From positions 1 to 36,833 of IMG/VR virus record IMGVR_UViG_2571042372_000004: a stretch of DNA of 36,833 nt, one strand, 5' to 3'. The notes beneath the pieces are model-generated. The model was not told the DNA's origin. It did no database searches and saw only the letters and a list, made by a program, of their open reading frames with translations. This DNA comes from a virus. Its lineage: Duplodnaviria > Heunggongvirae > Uroviricota > Caudoviricetes. Both the position numbers and the translations under genes were made by a program. Shown one piece after another: positions 1 to 29,987 of the stretch. How positions within the stretch are numbered: position 1 is the first letter of the stretch; each line of letters begins with the position of its first letter.

Positions 1-1215
1 TTATTTTTCAACCTCTGACAGGGGTAAGTAATGAGATGTCTGTAATGTCAAACTCTCTATCTCAAAGGAAATGTTGCTGATATTTTGACCTGCAAATTGC
101 GGATGCCACTCAGCGCCAGGGAATAACATTTCCGCAGAAGTAGCAACTATAGGGTCAATAGCATTAAGATAATGTAACTTATCAGGTGCGCTGTGTAACA
201 GTAACCACTGCAACTCCACTGAAGGATTTGTAAAATGTTCTAATAAATGAAAGTTATTATGTAGTACGCTTAGTAAAAAACTGGTTTCGTATACTTCCGT
301 TACATATTTCCACCCCTGATATTCAGGTGTATTTTCATAAACAATACCCATACCTTCACAATCACTATGTCGAACTGCTTGTGGTGATAATAGTTGCAAA
401 AGAGACAAAACATCGTCCGCATATTTTTTAACTGGATGACGATTTTGCTTACCTTTTATTTGATCAATTTCAAGTGAATCACCAACAACATTGAGAGCAA
501 TAGTAACATGAGGAATATTATTATTATCACGCAAACTGAATAACCGTAATTTATGTTGCTCAATTTGATTTGCATAATACTCACCATAACCACCGGTAAG
601 ATTTTTTCGATCATCAAACTGGCCTACGCAATGTTGCATATGCCATGATTCATAAGCCATTTCACGACGAAGGTTCGAATGACTGGCATCAAACTCAACA
701 ATTTTTCCGTCTGGCACATCAAGTATTGACTTTACAGTATTTTGTTCACTCGGCTGCCACCCTTTCTCGCGTCGTTGAAGCATCTTTTCATGCTCTTCTT
801 CACGCATTCTGAACGCAACGTAGCAGGTTATGCGCTGTAGTTTTGATTCCAGACGGGTACCACATTTCCTGGAAAGAAATTCCACCAACTCCCGTTCTTT
901 GGTTAATATTTGTTGATGATCGGTTTCGATATAATAAAGTGTCGCAGTTGATACTGAGGCAGTATTAAACTTCGATACCAGCCATTCCGGGATTACATCA
1001 TCATTTTTATTAAACAGTGAATATTCTGCAAGCGAGTTAATTTGTTGCACCATTGGAAAGTCACTAATTAGCCATCGATAAAAATGGTTGAGTAACCATT
1101 TTTGGATGGTCTCATTATCCTGGCGAAACAGACTTCTTTGCAAAATTGCTGTTTTTACTTCCGGGGCATTAATTACATCCCTTGCATTATAATTCTGGTG
1201 AATATTTCCAGTCAT
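1..1215 (-). CDS. hypothetical protein, AT-rich accessory gene (possibly PcfJ-like; domain call tentative)
   Basis: Complete 404-aa ORF (ATG at 1213-1215, stop at 1-3). Strongly AT-rich compared with adjacent yegQ. Contains the motif ESWHMQHCVGQF, which I tentatively associate with PcfJ-like proteins. Outside the prophage. Confidence 0.55.
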   Translation of the reverse strand: MTGNIHQNYNARDVINAPEVKTAILQRSLFRQDNETIQKWLLNHFYRWLISDFPMVQQINSLAEYSLFNKNDDVIPEWLVSKFNTASVSTATLYYIETDHQQILTKERELVEFLSRKCGTRLESKLQRITCYVAFRMREEEHEKMLQRREKGWQPSEQNTVKSILDVPDGKIVEFDASHSNLRREMAYESWHMQHCVGQFDDRKNLTGGYGEYYANQIEQHKLRLFSLRDNNNIPHVTIALNVVGDSLEIDQIKGKQNRHPVKKYADDVLSLLQLLSPQAVRHSDCEGMGIVYENTPEYQGWKYVTEVYETSFLLSVLHNNFHLLEHFTNPSVELQWLLLHSAPDKLHYLNAIDPIVATSAEMLFPGAEWHPQFAGQNISNISFEIESLTLQTSHYLPLSEVEK

Positions 1216-1702
1216 AACATCCGCCCGTGTTTATTATATCACTCAAAGCAATAATTGTTGACTATAGATTTTTTATCTAAATCAGCATGGTTGCAGGTAC
1301 ATACTCAAGTAAGCCACTCAAGAAAATAACGTAAACTCAATAGTGGCAGCGTCACAAACTTTGGAAATTATGTCTTATATTTGCAGTTTATTTTAGTGAA
1401 TAATTGAGATAAATGACATTATTTTACATCCTCAATAATTCAGGCTGTAAGAGGACGGCAAATACATTCATAATTATCAGGGGATGAACATTCAGGAAAG
1501 TAGTCAGTATCGTCAACTTTTTCTTTTATCACTACATGAAGATTTCGTGTAGATACTCCCATCTCTGCCACTTCTCCCCTCACATTTACACTGGAGCTAA
1601 ACCCGCCGATTGCGCTACAATGCCCGCCCTTAAAGTGGGGGCACTCCCCTAACCGCTTCATCAGGTGAAGCGGCTCTGACCTGTCATCAGAACGAGAGAA
1701 TT

Positions 1703-3064
1703 ATGTTTAAACCGGAACTCCTTTCCCCGGCGGGAACGCTGAAAAATATGCGTTACGCTTTCGCTTATGGCGCAGATGCTGTTTATGCGGGCCAGCCGCG
1801 TTACTCCCTGCGTGTACGCAACAACGAATTCAACCACGAAAATCTTCAGCTCGGCATCAATGAAGCCCACGCGCTGGGGAAAAAGTTTTATGTCGTGGTC
1901 AACATTGCACCGCACAACGCCAAGCTGAAAACCTTTATCCGTGACCTGAAACCGGTGGTGGAAATGGGGCCGGATGCGCTGATTATGTCCGATCCAGGGC
2001 TGATTATGCTGGTGCGTGAACACTTCCCGGAAATGCCAATCCACCTCTCGGTACAGGCTAACGCCGTAAACTGGGCGACGGTGAAATTCTGGCAGCAAAT
2101 GGGTCTGACCCGCGTGATCCTCTCTCGCGAACTGTCACTGGAAGAGATTGAAGAGATCCGCAATCAGGTGCCGGATATGGAGATCGAAATCTTCGTTCAC
2201 GGCGCGCTGTGCATGGCCTACTCCGGTCGCTGCCTGCTCTCTGGCTATATCAACAAGCGCGACCCGAACCAGGGCACCTGCACCAACGCCTGCCGCTGGG
2301 AGTACAATGTCCAGGAAGGGAAAGAAGATGACGTCGGCAACATCGTACACAAGTACGAGCCGATTCCGGTGCAAAATGTTGAGCCGACGCTGGGTATCGG
2401 CGCGCCAACCGACAAAGTGTTTATGATCGAAGAAGCCCAGCGTCCGGGCGAGTATATGACCGCGTTTGAAGATGAGCACGGCACTTACATCATGAACTCG
2501 AAAGATCTGCGCGCCATCGCCCATGTTGAACGCCTGACCAAAATGGGCGTGCATTCGCTGAAAATCGAAGGCCGTACCAAATCTTTCTACTATTGCGCAC
2601 GCACCGCGCAGGTTTACCGTAAAGCTATCGATGACGCCGCTGCGGGCAAACCGTTCGATACCAGCCTGCTGGAAACGCTGGAAGGTCTGGCGCATCGTGG
2701 CTATACCGAAGGTTTCCTGCGTCGTCATACCCACGACGATTATCAGAACTACGAATACGGTTATTCGGTTTCTGACCGCCAGCAGTTTGTTGGTGAGTTT
2801 ACCGGTGAGCGCAAGGGGGAGCTCGCGGCGGTAGCGGTGAAAAATAAATTCTCCGTTGGCGACAGCCTTGAGCTGATGACGCCGCAAGGCAACATTAACT
2901 TTACCCTTGAGCATATGGAAAACGCCAAAGGTGAAGCGATGCCGGTCGCACCAGGCGATGGTTATACTGTGTGGCTCCCGGTGCCGCAGGATCTTGAGCT
3001 AAATTACGCGCTGCTGATGCGTAATTTCTCCGGGGAAACCACGCGTAACCCCCACGGTAAGTGA
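1703..3064 (+). CDS. yegQ: peptidase U32 family protein YegQ (TrhP, tRNA hydroxylation-associated)
   Basis: 453-aa ORF with recognisable YegQ sequence (MFKPELLSPAGTLKNMRYAFAYGADAVYAGQPRYSLR...; Cys-rich CMAYSGRC...C..NAC segment). GC-rich host-type composition. ATG preceded by a GAGAG-type RBS. Confidence 0.93.
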   Translation: MFKPELLSPAGTLKNMRYAFAYGADAVYAGQPRYSLRVRNNEFNHENLQLGINEAHALGKKFYVVVNIAPHNAKLKTFIRDLKPVVEMGPDALIMSDPGLIMLVREHFPEMPIHLSVQANAVNWATVKFWQQMGLTRVILSRELSLEEIEEIRNQVPDMEIEIFVHGALCMAYSGRCLLSGYINKRDPNQGTCTNACRWEYNVQEGKEDDVGNIVHKYEPIPVQNVEPTLGIGAPTDKVFMIEEAQRPGEYMTAFEDEHGTYIMNSKDLRAIAHVERLTKMGVHSLKIEGRTKSFYYCARTAQVYRKAIDDAAAGKPFDTSLLETLEGLAHRGYTEGFLRRHTHDDYQNYEYGYSVSDRQQFVGEFTGERKGELAAVAVKNKFSVGDSLELMTPQGNINFTLEHMENAKGEAMPVAPGDGYTVWLPVPQDLELNYALLMRNFSGETTRNPHGK

Positions 3065-10198: not shown

Positions 10199-10891
10199 TT
10201 AGTTATCTTTTTGCCTTTCTTTATCCCATTTCTTTACAGTGGTCTGATACCACTCTTCACGTGCTCGTTGTTCCTCTGCTCTGTCACTTGAATTATAGTT
10301 GTCTGTTTTAATTTTTTTGCTTCCCTGGGAAATCGGCCTCCAGTCTTCTCTAATCTTTTTCATCTGCTCAGCTATCTGTGTCATTGGACTCCTTGCACCT
10401 AAGTAGCTAACCCCCTCGAAAGAAGCCATATCATAAGAATACTCATTCCGCTCTCTTTCAGTTGAGCCCGGCTGTTTAGACCAGCTAATACTAACAGAAT
10501 AAACTTGATCTTTAATCTGGTCATACTTACAAAGACTGCTGTTGAGGGAATGGCCGTTTTTCAATACGCTAACCTTGCTAAATGGTATACCTTTATTTTT
10601 TCTATGTTCTGCATTAACCAGTGGGGGATTAAATCCGACTTCAATATCATAGGCTGGGGCATTTCCGGTATTAGCAATATTGATATCAAAATAAAAAGCA
10701 GCCCAAGAATTTGGTTCAAGAGTCACAACGACATGAGGTTGAACTGATGCGTCAACCATCCTTTTTGTCTCGTCTGCTAATAGCCTTGTTACTCTCCACA
10801 AGAAAAATGTAGCAACTGCTGTTAGCAATGCTGCCAAAGCGGAGATAAGTGTACTTACTGTGTTTATATGCTCTGCGATAAATTCGATCAT
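10199..10891 (-). CDS. membrane-anchored hypothetical protein (cargo gene at the P2 Z/fun position)
   Basis: 230-aa ORF, AT-rich. One predicted N-terminal transmembrane helix (VSTLISALAALLTAVATFFLW) followed by basic residues (RVTRLLADETKR), suggesting a cytoplasmic body. Highly charged C-terminal tail. No family recognised. Confidence 0.7.
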   Translation of the reverse strand: MIEFIAEHINTVSTLISALAALLTAVATFFLWRVTRLLADETKRMVDASVQPHVVVTLEPNSWAAFYFDINIANTGNAPAYDIEVGFNPPLVNAEHRKNKGIPFSKVSVLKNGHSLNSSLCKYDQIKDQVYSVSISWSKQPGSTERERNEYSYDMASFEGVSYLGARSPMTQIAEQMKKIREDWRPISQGSKKIKTDNYNSSDRAEEQRAREEWYQTTVKKWDKERQKDN

Positions 10892-11379
10892 GAGTTGTCC
10901 TTGGGGGCGTACTAATTGTTTTCAATACTAAAATAGCGCCGGGCTTGAAAAATTGCACACTTATGGTTCGATTTACCTCAACAGTTAAGGCTTCTACTTC
11001 CCCCATGCACCTCACCCAGCCCAAGACGGTATGAGGTCTGACAAAGAACTTCCTGACACTTGAAAACGAGGCAACGGCTAGGGTTTCTCGTAGGGCAAGG
11101 ATTGAATACGAAGCCTGTATATTGCTCCGCAAACGCTGCTGAGGGCAGTTTAAATGTTGGGCGTTTATGTAGCCTTTCACTCACCAGCATGAGTTCAATG
11201 TCTGTGAGTTACCGACAACAATATAAAGAGGGTGGCATCATATATCCAAGCTAGAGTCAAATCCTCCAACTGGTTTTATGATCAGTGTCAATTGTTTGAT
11301 TATTGAACGTTTACGAAGCAGCACGGGAGCCATATAACTAATGGGCAGGTATAAGCCTGTATCACGAGGAATCAGTAAA

Positions 11380-16260: not shown

Positions 16261-16608
16261 TCAACTCACAGGGATGGTTAACGAAAGTGGCTGGCCGGTG
16301 TCGTTGTGCTGGCCGGTTAACGTGACCGTCATTCGCCCGTCAAAACCGCGCTCAGTGGTGACGGATGACAGGGTGACGCGGGGTTCCCATTTCAGCACAG
16401 CCATGTAACAGGCGACCTTAATCTGCAACTCAAGCGCCGGAGTCTGCGGCTGGTCAATCATTGACGCCAGCAACGAGCCGTAATCTCGACGCATCACCCG
16501 TGAGCCGACGGGGGTACACAGGATATCGCCGATACTCTGGCTGATATGCTCAAGGTCAGTGACAGTCAGGCCATCACTGCGATTCATTCCGAGATAACGC
16601 GCTGTCAT
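16261..16608 (-). CDS. W: baseplate protein gpW
   Basis: 115-aa ORF; P2 gpW size and synteny. Confidence 0.88.
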   Translation of the reverse strand: MTARYLGMNRSDGLTVTDLEHISQSIGDILCTPVGSRVMRRDYGSLLASMIDQPQTPALELQIKVACYMAVLKWEPRVTLSSVTTERGFDGRMTVTLTGQHNDTGQPLSLTIPVS

Positions 16609-17240
16609 AAAGGACTCCCGGTTGTGCCGCCGCTGTCGCCGGGGTGTTTGTGGGTATGCAGTACCTTACCGTTTGATGAGAGTTCACCGCCGGTGTGTTC
16701 AATGTTGCCGCGCATCGTCCCGCCCTTCCGTACTTCCAGCGTGCCGGTAATCAGCCTGTTGGTGCAGACCACCTCCGGCGTGTCCAGAGTGACACGGGTT
16801 GATGCTTTCACCGTGACCACCGGCACCGTGGCAGTAACAGAATCAGAAGCCGTCACGCTGGCCGTTTTAATTCCGCTTACCGTCAGTGCACTGGTTTCGG
16901 GTTCATACTCAATCACCGCCCCGTCAGGGAAACGGATATGCAGGGCATCAGCCGACGCAGACGGCGCAGGGTTATCGCCGGAATAAATCCCCGGCAGAAC
17001 GAACGCCGTGTCGAGTTCACCGCCCACGGCCAGAATCAGCACCTGTTCCCCCACGGAAGGTGCCCACCATGTGCGCGAACGTCCGGCGCGATGGGTCAGC
17101 CACTGAAGCCAGTCGGTGCACATGCCGCCGGTCTGCACACGGCAGCGACCGGCTTTAAGGTTGGTTTCGACGACAAGGCCGGTACGAATCATGTTGCGCA
17201 GTGCGCGCGCGAGTTCCTGAATATTTGCGAGAGTGTTCAT
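16605..17240 (-). CDS. V: baseplate spike/assembly protein gpV
   Basis: Start set at the internal ATG (17238-17240), giving a 211-aa product beginning MNTLANIQELARALRNMIRTG..., consistent with P2 gpV length. The ORF track extends 12 codons upstream. Confidence 0.85.
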   Translation of the reverse strand: MNTLANIQELARALRNMIRTGLVVETNLKAGRCRVQTGGMCTDWLQWLTHRAGRSRTWWAPSVGEQVLILAVGGELDTAFVLPGIYSGDNPAPSASADALHIRFPDGAVIEYEPETSALTVSGIKTASVTASDSVTATVPVVTVKASTRVTLDTPEVVCTNRLITGTLEVRKGGTMRGNIEHTGGELSSNGKVLHTHKHPGDSGGTTGSPL

Positions 17241-17317
17241 AACGGGAAGGATGCCGCTGGACGATACCAGCAGCAATCATGGAGGATTCTGTCAGCTGTG
17301 ACACAACATAATAAATA

Positions 17318-18073
17318 TTAGTTGTAGCACTTCTCTATAATCTTCATACACTCCTCATGAGCTAAATCATGGCTGTCAAATTCTTTATTAAAAAAGAAGA
17401 AAAACGCCTTCTTAACCTGAGGCATTTCAATAAAAATAAATTCATCAACCTTATGAAAGAAATGAAAACTCTTGTTTGATGTTTCAAAAACCATCAAAGA
17501 ATTATGTTTTTTATCCTTCCATTTCGACATCAGATTGCGTCGCGATTTTCGTATAATCCTGAAGACATCCCCCGGCGTCGTATCGACATTCCCCCAAAAC
17601 ATTGCAACCGGGAAGTTTGCAAGGAACGGGATATAATCACCACCTTTATACCTGAGAAAGCGGTTCCGCAAATCCATTAATTGCAACTTAAAACCCATGT
17701 ATTGCAACCACCATATGATGCAATCATACTCATAATCTGTTAACTCCTCTCCCCTCTTTTCCGTAAGAAATTTCTTCAGGTTATACTCAAACACTCCCAG
17801 CAAATCAGAATTGCACACTCTGCATGCTGGTACAGTGGCTTTAATGTAATGAGTTGACTGATTATTCTTTTTATTAATTAAAGATTTTTCAGCATTTGAC
17901 TCAAAGGCCCACTGAGGAATAATGTGCTCACGAGTAATATCGTCAGAACTCCCGCATAACACACATATATCAGCATTATGGTCAGCAATAATACAATCCA
18001 TAACTTTCTTTTGAGAGTGCTTTACTCTTTTTCTCAAAATAGAAAACTTTTCATCCATAAACACCCGTCTCAT
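17318..18073 (-). CDS. HNH nuclease-domain protein (AT-rich moron between S and V, the P2 orf30 position)
   Basis: 251-aa ORF, very AT-rich. N-terminal HNH pattern CVLCG...DITREHIIPQW...N...ACRVCN (two CxxC pairs flanking a conserved His). Start ATG overlaps the gpS stop (ATGA), implying translational coupling within the late operon. C-terminal ~150 aa unassigned. Confidence 0.75.
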   Translation of the reverse strand: MRRVFMDEKFSILRKRVKHSQKKVMDCIIADHNADICVLCGSSDDITREHIIPQWAFESNAEKSLINKKNNQSTHYIKATVPACRVCNSDLLGVFEYNLKKFLTEKRGEELTDYEYDCIIWWLQYMGFKLQLMDLRNRFLRYKGGDYIPFLANFPVAMFWGNVDTTPGDVFRIIRKSRRNLMSKWKDKKHNSLMVFETSNKSFHFFHKVDEFIFIEMPQVKKAFFFFFNKEFDSHDLAHEECMKIIEKCYN

Positions 18074-18528
18074 ATAACATCTTTCGATAGAATCACTAAT
18101 AACTCCCTTTCTATCAATTGTATAGATTCCTTGTCAAAACCAAATAACTCACGAACAGGATATTCCACCACAGCACTATTACGCCCCGGCTTATCCTTAA
18201 GCCCTAATTGATGTACTCGCGCAATTCGTTGCACTCCGCTGGCAAACTCCACCACCGCCGCACTCTCGCTACCTGTTGCTTTCATAAACCGGTTAGTGCG
18301 TAATTTCACAAACATTTCCCGCTTTATCCGGCCTTTCTTATTTCGCACTGGCTGGTTTTTTCTCGGTACATACGGCGTACCATCCGGGCCTTTTTGTAAT
18401 TTAATTCGCTGCTGCTGGCGCTGGCGCAGTTTCTTCGCAATATCTACCGCCAGTCGCCGACGCCCTGACGGTGACAGCGACTCAATCAGTCCGGTCAGCC
18501 GGTCTTCAAAACGCTTAAACTCATTCAT
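18070..18528 (-). CDS. S: tail completion protein gpS
   Basis: 152-aa ORF; P2 gpS size and synteny. Confidence 0.88.
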   Translation of the reverse strand: MNEFKRFEDRLTGLIESLSPSGRRRLAVDIAKKLRQRQQQRIKLQKGPDGTPYVPRKNQPVRNKKGRIKREMFVKLRTNRFMKATGSESAAVVEFASGVQRIARVHQLGLKDKPGRNSAVVEYPVRELFGFDKESIQLIERELLVILSKDVI

Positions 18529-27767: not shown

Positions 27768-29987
27768 ATGGAACTTAAATTAAAGAATATAACCAGCTAT
27801 AAGAAAGATAGCTTCACGACTCTTAATCTCTCAAAAAAAATTAATATACTTTATGGTCACAACGGTTGTGGAAAATCAACCATATCTAATTATTTCTATA
27901 ATCCAAATAACACGGACTACAAAGAATGCGAATGTCCTTTCATAGATACTTTTCGCCTATTGGTTTATAATACTAAGTTTGTTGAGGATAATTTTTATAA
28001 TGCAAAAGAGCAAAAAGGAGTATTCACTTTAAGTAAGGAAAATGCTGACATTGAAAAAGAATTGTTGGAAAAAGAAGCTATAAGACAAGACCTACTTACA
28101 AAATACAAAGATAAAAAAAACGTTATTGAGCGTTTAATTAAAGATAAAAACAATAAAGAAAATGAATATATTGATTTAATATGGAATAAAGCAGAACCTT
28201 TTAGATCATCTGACTTAAAGAACTTGATGAAAGGTCAGTTAGGAAGCAAGAGATCATTTTATGAGCAAGTTAAAAAAGCCCCTCAAACCACTGACGTTAA
28301 CATCGAGTCACTTGCTCAAGAATATAGTATTCTTTTAAAGAACAAAGATAAATTCACTGCATCAATTACACCTTTAGAAAAATATATCATTTCAGAAAAA
28401 GATAAAGAATCTTTATCCACTCCGATTATAGACTCAAGTAATAGCTATTTGTCAGAAACAATTAAACAACTTCAAAACCTTGACTGGGTGAAAAAAGGGA
28501 AGGAATTATATTTAAATGGCACATGTTGCCCATTCTGCCAAGAAGACACTATTAAAGACAAATTTTTAGAAGCAATTGAATCTATCTTTGATGATAGCTA
28601 CTCCAAGAAAGTTGACCAAATACGCATTATCAGATCGTCTTATGAATCCGCTACCATAGATAATTTAAGAAAAATAAAACAAGAGATTTCATCTTGTGAA
28701 TTAATCACCTCAAAAGAAAAAGATATAACATCATCTCATATAGCGTTATTAGAGGAAATAGCAAACAAAAACTTAAAATTGATGTTAGATAAAATCAATA
28801 ACCCATCTATATCTATTATTTTGGAATCCAATAGCGACCTTGAAGCAAAGGTAGTTGATAATATAGCAGAGTACAACAATAGAATTAAAGAAATAAATAT
28901 TAAAGTCAAACAATTTAAGGATAGTGAAAAGTCTATACGTTACAAAATATGGGGAGCAATAAGAGAATTATGCAACGCTGAGTTTGAAGCTTTCTCAAAA
29001 TATGAGAATGACTATAAAATCATTTATGAACAATATCAACTTGAATTAAATACCATAAAAGAACAAGGAGATAACAATAGCAAAAAGATCAAAGAGCTAC
29101 GCGATCAAATATCTAACATTGATGCAACCATAGATTCTATAAATCAACGTCTAAAATTATTAGGAATTTATGGTTTTAGCATAAAAAAACACACTGAGAG
29201 CAATGATAAATATATTATATCACGTTCTGAAAACACAACAGATAAAGATGTATACAGATCTCTTAGCGAGGGTGAAAAAACTTTAATTACCTTTCTCTAC
29301 TTTCTGGAATGCTGTAAAGGTAAGACAGATAAGAATGATACGGATATGCGAGATGTATTTATCGTTATTGATGATCCAATATCCAGCCTCTCTCAAAATT
29401 ATGTGTACGATATTGCTTCAATAATTCACCATGAAATAATCAACAATAACAAAGCAGTAAAGAAAACATTAATACTCACACATAACCTTTATTTCTTTCA
29501 TGAACTTATCAAATTAGCTCCTAGAAGCAAAGAAGATAGAACATTCAAGCGTGATTATTATCTTGGACGAGTAACAAAAAATGAATATAGCATAATTACA
29601 GAAATAGAGAAAAAGAGCATTCAGAATGAATACCAGTCCCTATGGCAAGTATTAAAAGATGCGAAGGATGGAAGGGTAAATAAAGTTATAATACCTAACA
29701 TCATGAGAAATATACTGGAATACTACTTCGCATTTGTTCATAGAACGGATGCATTACAGACAGAGTTAAATAAACTTGCTAGCGATGATAAGAATAATGA
29801 TTTTAGAGCATTTTATAGATACATTAATAGAGGTTCCCATTCAGATGCAGTTAATATCACAGACATGGGAGATATATCTCCAGAGAAATATATGGAGCAA
29901 CTAAAAACCATTTTTCGTATGACTGGTGATGAAAAACATTATTTGAAAATGATGGACGAAGAGGAAGAGAAAACCGTTACCGCTTAG
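27768..29987 (+). CDS. ABC/Rad50-like ATPase with coiled-coil CxxC insert and C-terminal putative nuclease domain (RloC/PrrC-like); defence candidate at the tin/old position
   Basis: 739-aa ORF, extremely AT-rich, GAGG RBS. Walker A GHNGCGKST; ABC signature LSEGEK; Walker B DVFIVIDDP; H-loop-like LILTHNLYF. A long K/E-rich predicted coiled coil between Walker A and signature carries CPFC (zinc-hook-like). C-terminal segment has R-x3-E (RNILE) plus downstream His residues, reminiscent of the PrrC/RloC anticodon-nuclease triad. Confidence 0.85.
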   Translation: MELKLKNITSYKKDSFTTLNLSKKINILYGHNGCGKSTISNYFYNPNNTDYKECECPFIDTFRLLVYNTKFVEDNFYNAKEQKGVFTLSKENADIEKELLEKEAIRQDLLTKYKDKKNVIERLIKDKNNKENEYIDLIWNKAEPFRSSDLKNLMKGQLGSKRSFYEQVKKAPQTTDVNIESLAQEYSILLKNKDKFTASITPLEKYIISEKDKESLSTPIIDSSNSYLSETIKQLQNLDWVKKGKELYLNGTCCPFCQEDTIKDKFLEAIESIFDDSYSKKVDQIRIIRSSYESATIDNLRKIKQEISSCELITSKEKDITSSHIALLEEIANKNLKLMLDKINNPSISIILESNSDLEAKVVDNIAEYNNRIKEINIKVKQFKDSEKSIRYKIWGAIRELCNAEFEAFSKYENDYKIIYEQYQLELNTIKEQGDNNSKKIKELRDQISNIDATIDSINQRLKLLGIYGFSIKKHTESNDKYIISRSENTTDKDVYRSLSEGEKTLITFLYFLECCKGKTDKNDTDMRDVFIVIDDPISSLSQNYVYDIASIIHHEIINNNKAVKKTLILTHNLYFFHELIKLAPRSKEDRTFKRDYYLGRVTKNEYSIITEIEKKSIQNEYQSLWQVLKDAKDGRVNKVIIPNIMRNILEYYFAFVHRTDALQTELNKLASDDKNNDFRAFYRYINRGSHSDAVNITDMGDISPEKYMEQLKTIFRMTGDEKHYLKMMDEEEEKTVTA

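Follow-up and report, generated by a model that had tools for sequence, protein, structure and literature searches.

What is the role of the AT-rich gene with an HNH-type nuclease motif that lies between the tail completion gene S and the baseplate spike gene V of a P2-like prophage, and how did it come to be there? The question is raised by a 36,833-nt stretch of viral DNA (called the window here, at its full length), which is a P2-like prophage whose late genes run on the minus strand. E. coli chromosomes, e.g., NZ_CP058714, are 100% identical to the window over the compared stretches. A first sequence-only reading had described a 251-aa AT-rich open reading frame (ORF) between gpS and gpV, and the composition bears this out: overall GC is ~0.36 in the accessory ORF vs 0.55 in the flanks, and 0.29-0.43 vs 0.53-0.59 per 100 nt. 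The ORF is an exact match to PHROG 10503 (phrog_10503), which carries no annotated function, and corresponds to ORF16 of phage R18C. The features discussed below are collected in Table 1.

Table 1. Coordinates of the accessory ORF, its flanking features and the second cargos of related loci. Positions refer to the window unless another locus is named.
Feature	Position	Strand	Remarks
Accessory ORF	17318..18073	-	251 aa; 246 aa from the conserved start; probable HNH_5-related His-Me finger protein
Predicted nuclease core, codons 37-88	17810..17965	-	C37xxC40, E49-H50, P53, W55, N70, C84xxC87-N88
Start region of the accessory ORF	18056..18073	-	ATGA/S-stop overlap at 18070-18073; family-conserved ATG at 18058..18056
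gpS, tail completion, mosaic allele	18070..18528	-	Pfam Phage_tail_S, E 6e-29; upstream of the accessory ORF
gpV baseplate spike	16605..17240	-	96% identical to P2 V; Pfam Phage_base_V and Phage_spike; downstream of the accessory ORF
Imported cassette, unaligned to P2-type coliphages	17278..18303		blastn; 3' 230 nt of S, accessory ORF and upstream part of P_V
66-nt block upstream of V, presumed Ogr-dependent P_V promoter	17241..17306	-	matches the whole S-V spacer of "empty" phages
Second cargo, 216 aa	L008 6926-7576	-	no PADLOC match
Second cargo, 272 aa	L083 4317-5135	-	hydrophobic N-terminal stretch; no PADLOC match

The proposed translational coupling to S through an ATGA overlap holds in part. 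The plus-strand tcat at the S stop reads ATGA on the minus strand, so that the accessory ATG overlaps the stop codon of S; an in-frame ATG in this position is restricted to the window lineage and one other. Most homologues start at the equivalent of M6 (MDKKF...), 11-27 nt past the S stop and after a short Shine-Dalgarno-like spacer, and in the window the corresponding ATG sits 11 nt past the S stop. Coupling to S is close, but the ATGA overlap itself is lineage-specific. At the other end, the stop codon of the accessory ORF is followed by an 11-nt spacer (17307-17317), and the accessory ORF plus these 11 nt are placed between the S stop and a retained 66-nt block. The gpV ORF spans 16605..17276, with its likely ATG at 17240.

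The P2 record gives the transcriptional context of this arrangement. The O operon ends with S and a putative terminator behind it, and V opens an operon of its own after an activator-binding site; Orf30 lies on the opposite strand, between the O-operon terminator and the activator-binding site at the start of the V operon. As S and V belong to different transcription units in P2, with V read from its own Ogr-activated promoter, the initial placement of the gene "inside the tail operon" is inaccurate. The "empty" phages L-413C and fiAA91-ss have an S-V spacer of 66 nt, the counterpart of the retained block of the window, which is presumed to be the Ogr-dependent P_V promoter, a function taken over from the P2 annotation; it has a TGT-N10-ACA dyad near its 5' end. 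Simple scans of five lineages revealed no recurrent dedicated sigma-70 promoter upstream of the accessory gene (weak sites occur in two of the five, none above shuffled expectation), and a simple scan of the window gave no convincing coding-strand sigma-70 promoter in the S tail. Similar scans for a terminator after the accessory gene found none in the window and none consistently in four other lineages, and an Rfam search found no RNA elements. The simplest inference is that the late O operon would be extended at its 3' end by the gene, whose expression would be translationally coupled to S. The constant tight coupling suggests late expression, and if expression is late only, the product would not protect a lysogen.

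Conservation across the family supports the HNH motif of the sequence-only reading, whose zinc and catalytic residues are retained on alignment. In 27 full-length sequences, down to 27% identity, C37, C40, E49, H50, P53, W55, N70, C84, C87, N88, L92, W122 and K129 are invariant. The four cysteines form two CxxC pairs flanking the finger and are invariant in 36 N-domain sequences as well. E49, H50 and P53 correspond to the catalytic-His (D/E)H..P strand, and N88 stands straight after the second CxxC; the resulting CxxC...(D/E)H..P...CxxCN pattern is present in all 57 sequences examined. As the invariant residues include exactly the zinc and catalytic positions of HNH fingers, a His-Me finger is very probably present. 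The window protein matches Pfam HNH_5 (PF14279) below threshold (16.2 bits, E 0.0099; 20.5 bits for the isolated domain; cut-off 27.5), and when N-domain pieces of relatives were scanned singly, 34 of 36 matched HNH_5 at E<=0.05, with a best value of 3.3e-9. HNH_5 is placed in group 1 (and group 8) of the His-Me finger classification (PMC5714182).

Structure-based searches gave less. PDB fold searches with the AlphaFold model (pLDDT 91) returned no HNH structure and no counterpart, and a full-length profile searched against PDB sequences found nothing. An N-domain profile gave weak matches to PDB sequences (E>=0.15), 5 of 12 of which were HNH proteins, and the two halves of the motif align weakly, in the right order, with 4h9d, an HNH endonuclease of Geobacter. 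His50 and the second CxxC are separated by an unusually long insert of ~34 residues with a beta-hairpin, and the structural Asn that is canonical just before the second CxxC is Ala or Thr here. This substitution, the sub-threshold Pfam score and the fold searches without an HNH structure would fit a protein without nuclease activity, in which the Cys4/His motif is a structural zinc ribbon of a regulatory or binding protein. Such a role is very improbable, given that E49-H50 and N88, which are catalytic and not zinc-binding positions, are invariant down to 27% identity and that HNH_5 matches occur family-wide with E down to 3e-9. From its sequence, the accessory protein is probably a His-Me finger nuclease.

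Outside the HNH-type region, the rest of the protein had no Pfam, NCBIfam, PADLOC or PDB match, in agreement with the early impression that the C-terminal part is unrecognisable. NCBIfam gave no match to the accessory protein as a whole, PADLOC yielded only noise at E>0.02 for it and nothing for distant relatives, and Pfam revealed no DNA-binding module of the NUMOD or HTH type. A word-indexed search for relatives returned 44 clusters, nearly all from Enterobacterales. An exhaustive profile search returned ~25 full-length clusters at the 50% level, together with ~870 representatives, mostly 300-360 aa long, that have only positions ~25-135 in common with the accessory protein. In this N-domain-only set (P0118-P0192), the C-terminal part differs from that of the accessory protein; one member among those scanned, the 595-aa P0186, carries a C-terminal OTU cysteine-protease domain. 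Thirty sequences of the set were read (10 of them scanned against Pfam and PADLOC, 5 against NCBIfam), with no curated family match.

The S gene of the window is a mosaic. R, V and W of the window are 96-99% identical to their P2 counterparts, and S only 55%: residues 1-25 of S are identical to P2 S, and the remainder resembles S of other accessory-gene carriers. A comparison of two Klebsiella-type phages, one with the gene (L037) and one empty (L046), delimits the exchange more closely. Their sequences agree at 96% until 50 nt short of the S stop and resume this agreement 49 nt ahead of the V ATG. The 65 nt between these two points in the empty phage, which comprise the last ~17 S codons and upstream P_V sequence, give way to 840 nt in the carrier. 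Across 81 aligned S proteins (the window and 80 IMG/VR loci), the last ~17-45 S residues co-vary with the following cargo, not only for the accessory gene but also for Pycsar, PDC-S59 and several unidentified cargos. In the window (18074-18303) and in loci L018-L097, each cargo type carries its own version of the S C-terminal helix. A strict linkage between S allele and accessory gene was considered and rejected, as the same S middle part occurs with Pycsar and PDC-S59; only the last ~17-45 S codons travel with the cargo. Around the gene, a search for flanking repeats that would mark transposition or site-specific insertion found only short chance repeats.

The S-V junction is occupied by many other cargos. 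In the hotspot survey, for which 80 IMG/VR loci were selected by S protein, about 40% have an S-V gap of 75 nt and the others one of 820-2861 nt. These longer gaps contain ~20 unrelated AT-rich cargos (GC 0.32-0.42) on either strand. PADLOC recognised among them Pycsar PycC (E 1e-128), PDC-S59, PDC-S45, PDC-S51, PDC-S33, a PDC-M68A HNH protein, AbiC and an LmuA-like protein, in loci L034, L035, L067, L068, L069, L076, L084 and L090. About 10 more cargos have no PADLOC match, e.g., a 720-aa ORF in L061 and a 495-aa ORF in L097. Pycsar lies directly after S and co-oriented with it, like the accessory HNH-type gene, so that a position behind S is no argument against a defence role. In some Klebsiella-type and related phages, the HNH-type gene and V are separated by a second cargo, which is encoded on the other strand (Table 1).

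These boundaries bear directly on the possibility that the gene encodes a free-standing homing endonuclease, which would be expressed late, cut the S-V junction (the S tail) of co-infecting empty P2-like phages and have its gene inserted into them through recombinational repair; immunity of its own genome would come from the divergent S tail. An HNH-type protein between conserved late genes, co-oriented and with no promoter of its own, is what this explanation expects, and the same site is used in 47 of 50 viral loci. In addition, phages that are otherwise 96% identical and differ in the presence of the gene differ exactly in the last ~17 S codons, which resembles co-conversion or target immunity, and the T4 Mob endonucleases share a His-Me finger group with HNH_5 (PMC5714182). 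The S-tail difference that can be read as target-site immunity is, however, a general property of cassette exchange at this junction: the S tail is likewise replaced beside cargos other than nucleases (Pycsar, PDC-S59 and others), and ~20 unrelated cargos use the same site. The insertion is not precise, and precision had been proposed earlier as a test of homing: 65 nt are replaced by 840 nt between near-identical phages, and other cargos behave likewise. Together with the missing NUMOD or HTH module and the evidence on selection and distribution given below, this makes homing improbable.

In P2-type prophages of E. coli, the gene is rare. It occurs at 79 places in 77 complete E. coli genomes, compared with ~1797 places in 1574 such genomes for a P2-type V, and is therefore present in ~4% of these prophages. 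It is not in P2, L-413C, fiAA91-ss and most other phage records, and phage R18C is a viable carrier. A role as a structural component of the tail, for which the gene would be a conserved part of it, was rejected on this rarity. Of 50 IMG/VR loci that carry the gene, 47 are P2-like, with 45%-100% identity to the window protein. In all 47, the gene begins 0-27 nt after S, and its distance from V is usually ~81 nt (up to 153 nt), except in the four loci with a second cargo. Compared with the window copy, the gene averages 65% identity, S 66% and V 76%, and the divergence of the gene correlates loosely with that of the backbone (rho 0.39-0.49). That the gene is as divergent as S gives no sign of the recent sweeps expected from homing; the pattern fits long residence and cassette shuffling. 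Sixteen of 17 E. coli-type alleles are intact, with a median dN/dS of 0.16, i.e., under purifying selection, which also counts against homing. One E. coli-type allele (L024 and L142, the same IMG/VR contig) has a 1-nt deletion, by which the protein ends at residue 93, and the database also contains truncated entries of 126-228 aa.

Most family members are found outside P2-like phages as stand-alone genes, contrary to the notion of a phage-restricted element. In a collection with one genome per species, 130 stretches encode a relative, and S and V are absent from 77 of the best 80 of these; no conserved neighbour or partner gene was found across the best 80 of 130 genomic loci. The family spans Proteobacteria, Bacteroidota, Desulfobacterota, candidate-phyla bacteria and Firmicutes, and the hosts of the non-P2 members include Vibrio, Shewanella, Flavobacterium, Chryseobacterium, Desulfobulbaceae and candidate-phyla bacteria. 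Of the non-P2 contexts examined, three have PADLOC defence genes close by. A Pseudoalteromonas island combines a homologue with AbiGi (E 4.5e-30) and ThsB (E 2e-60), in a Psychromonas lambdoid prophage the homologue adjoins an AbiZ-like gene, and in an Erwinia region resembling a conjugative element (Tra genes and integrase) it lies near a PifA-like KAP NTPase with a weak PADLOC match (E 3e-8). On a Bacteroidota chromosome, the homologue is a lone gene. A family that lives mostly outside phages, with no fixed neighbour and in places beside known defence genes, counts against a homing endonuclease.

The same distribution bears on a nuclease that serves the lytic cycle of the phage itself, by host DNA breakdown, packaging help or countering host defence. 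In HK97-like phages, HNH proteins beside terminases help DNA packaging. A comparable connection may be seen in a Firmicutes-type phage contig, where a 40%-identical homologue lies in an accessory region between BRO-like and terminase small-subunit genes, ~1.5 kb upstream of the latter, and homologues spanning 45-100% identity stay closely coupled to the late gene S. A lytic-cycle function is nevertheless distinctly improbable: the gene is dispensable, as its presence in ~4% of P2-type prophages implies, in the window it is ~3.5 kb from the terminase gene M and >6 kb from P, most homologues are chromosomal and outside any phage, and the searched libraries (Pfam, PADLOC, PHROGs and NCBIfam) revealed no likeness to known anti-defence proteins. 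A terminase-associated packaging HNH protein of the HK97 gp74 type was rejected, given the distance of several kb from M, P and the portal gene Q and a presence in 79 of ~1797 copies.

The best explanation is that the accessory gene is a single-gene candidate for a nuclease of defence or inter-phage competition, a reading of moderate probability. The defence moron of the sequence-only reading fits this evidence. The hotspot content, the three non-P2 contexts with defence genes, the patchy stand-alone distribution, purifying selection and dispensability all favour a conflict role. Counting for defence in particular are the residence in a hotspot that holds Pycsar, AbiC and PDC systems and the position near AbiGi/ThsB, AbiZ-like and weakly PifA-like genes; this neighbour-gene argument rests on a handful of contexts. 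On the other side, the protein matched no described defence family in PADLOC, the 47 P2-like loci all have the gene 0-27 nt behind S, no dedicated promoter recurs in the five lineages scanned, and the HNH_5 score of the window protein is sub-threshold.

In mechanistic terms, the gene is a cargo cassette of the S-V hotspot and encodes a putative stand-alone nuclease. Its predicted scaffold of helical bundle and beta-sheet would hold a His-Me finger of the HNH_5 type, with a Cys4 zinc site, His50 as the catalytic residue and Asn88 as metal ligand. The scaffold may restrain or direct the nuclease, and the protein would cut the nucleic acid of competing mobile elements, i.e., of another phage or a satellite. 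In P2-like phages, transcription would extend from the late O operon into the cassette, and translation would depend on the close coupling to S; low-level expression in lysogens is possible from signals within the cassette-borne S tail. Late expression would fit a role in competition or against satellites better than classical prophage immunity. A more far-reaching proposal makes the gene the founding example of stand-alone defence nucleases that form a widespread family with a hitherto undescribed scaffold (~130 species full-length and ~870 cluster representatives with the N-terminal domain in common), fired late as an anti-satellite or anti-phage weapon. The nuclease would then act while the phage grows lytically or once the late genes of the helper are trans-activated by a P4-type satellite, as a weapon against satellites and competing phages and not as a classical defence expressed by lysogens. 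This wider proposal seems unlikely.

The protein family and its scaffold are new. The variability of the hotspot is known, but its defence content has been little explored. That the gene occupies the variable position of P2 orf30, as noted from the start, is confirmed by the P2 record and the R18C paper (PMC6823313), which had already recorded the accessory ORF as a 741-bp hypothetical "moron" replacing ORF30. The same paper gives P2 Orf30 as "261-bp-long" (PMC6823313), which looks like a unit slip, as the NCBI record (L014, the P2 reference, 1440-2225) has a gene of 786 nt that encodes 261 aa. The old/tin and Z/fun hotspots are well covered in the literature, and hotspots "within the tail genes" receive passing mention only (PMC9122126, PMC9519451, PMC13586616, bioRxiv 10.1101/2024.10.15.618418). 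The window itself carries cargo at both of the better known sites. At old/tin, between the portal gene Q and the replication gene A, a 739-aa ORF (27768-29987, plus strand, GC ~0.29) matches PADLOC PDC-S06 (E 5e-253) and has a PrrC-like C-terminal region. At Z/fun, between FI and G, an AT-rich stretch (10199-11180, minus strand, GC 0.39-0.44) has two ORFs, of 230 and 142 aa, neither of which matched PADLOC. The left edge of the window beyond tail gene D (1-3064) contains ORFs unlike P2 genes and with no PADLOC match, namely one of 404 aa on the minus strand that runs to the window end (GC 0.34-0.40) and others of 453 and 259 aa.

The S-V (orf30) junction is a slot for defence cargo that has been far less studied than old/tin and Z/fun. 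Its cassettes overwrite the C-terminal tail of the essential gene S and the activator-proximal part of a late promoter, and they provide a useful case for cargo exchange without loss of essential functions. If the accessory protein is an active nuclease of defence or competition, it would represent a compact single-gene system with a new scaffold.

Among known proteins, the closest likeness is to HNH_5 (PF14279) and other His-Me finger group 1 nucleases (Geobacter 4H9D and McrA), with which the accessory protein has the CxxC...(D/E)H..P...CxxCN signature in common. The aligned motif halves are ~10 residues apart in 4h9d, whereas ~34 residues separate His50 from the second CxxC in the accessory protein, and, according to the predicted model, the accessory finger is embedded in a ~250-aa scaffold of helical bundle and beta-sheet that has no PDB counterpart. 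In defence loci such as Septu (PtuB) and SAVED-HNH (Cap5), an HNH nuclease is the killing or clearing module. PtuB and Cap5 work with partner ATPase or sensor proteins, in contrast to the accessory family, which has no conserved partner and no PADLOC match. The T-even MobA-E endonucleases belong to the same His-Me finger group (PMC5714182), lie between conserved late or middle genes and rely on upstream transcription, as the accessory gene appears to do. Unlike them, the accessory gene is inserted imprecisely, encodes no recognisable DNA-binding module, occurs mostly outside phages and bears no signature of sweeps. P2 Orf30 differs from the accessory gene in that it lies on the opposite strand, follows the annotated O-operon terminator and has no PADLOC match; the two are likened by site and composition, both being AT-rich and non-essential genes of the S-V hotspot. 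The other S-V cargos (Pycsar, AbiC, PDC-S33, S45, S51, S59 and M68A) belong to protein families unrelated to the accessory protein, and most of them lie on the other strand or bring their own upstream sequence, several hundred nt long, but they occupy the same slot as AT-rich one- or two-gene cassettes, some with their own S tail.
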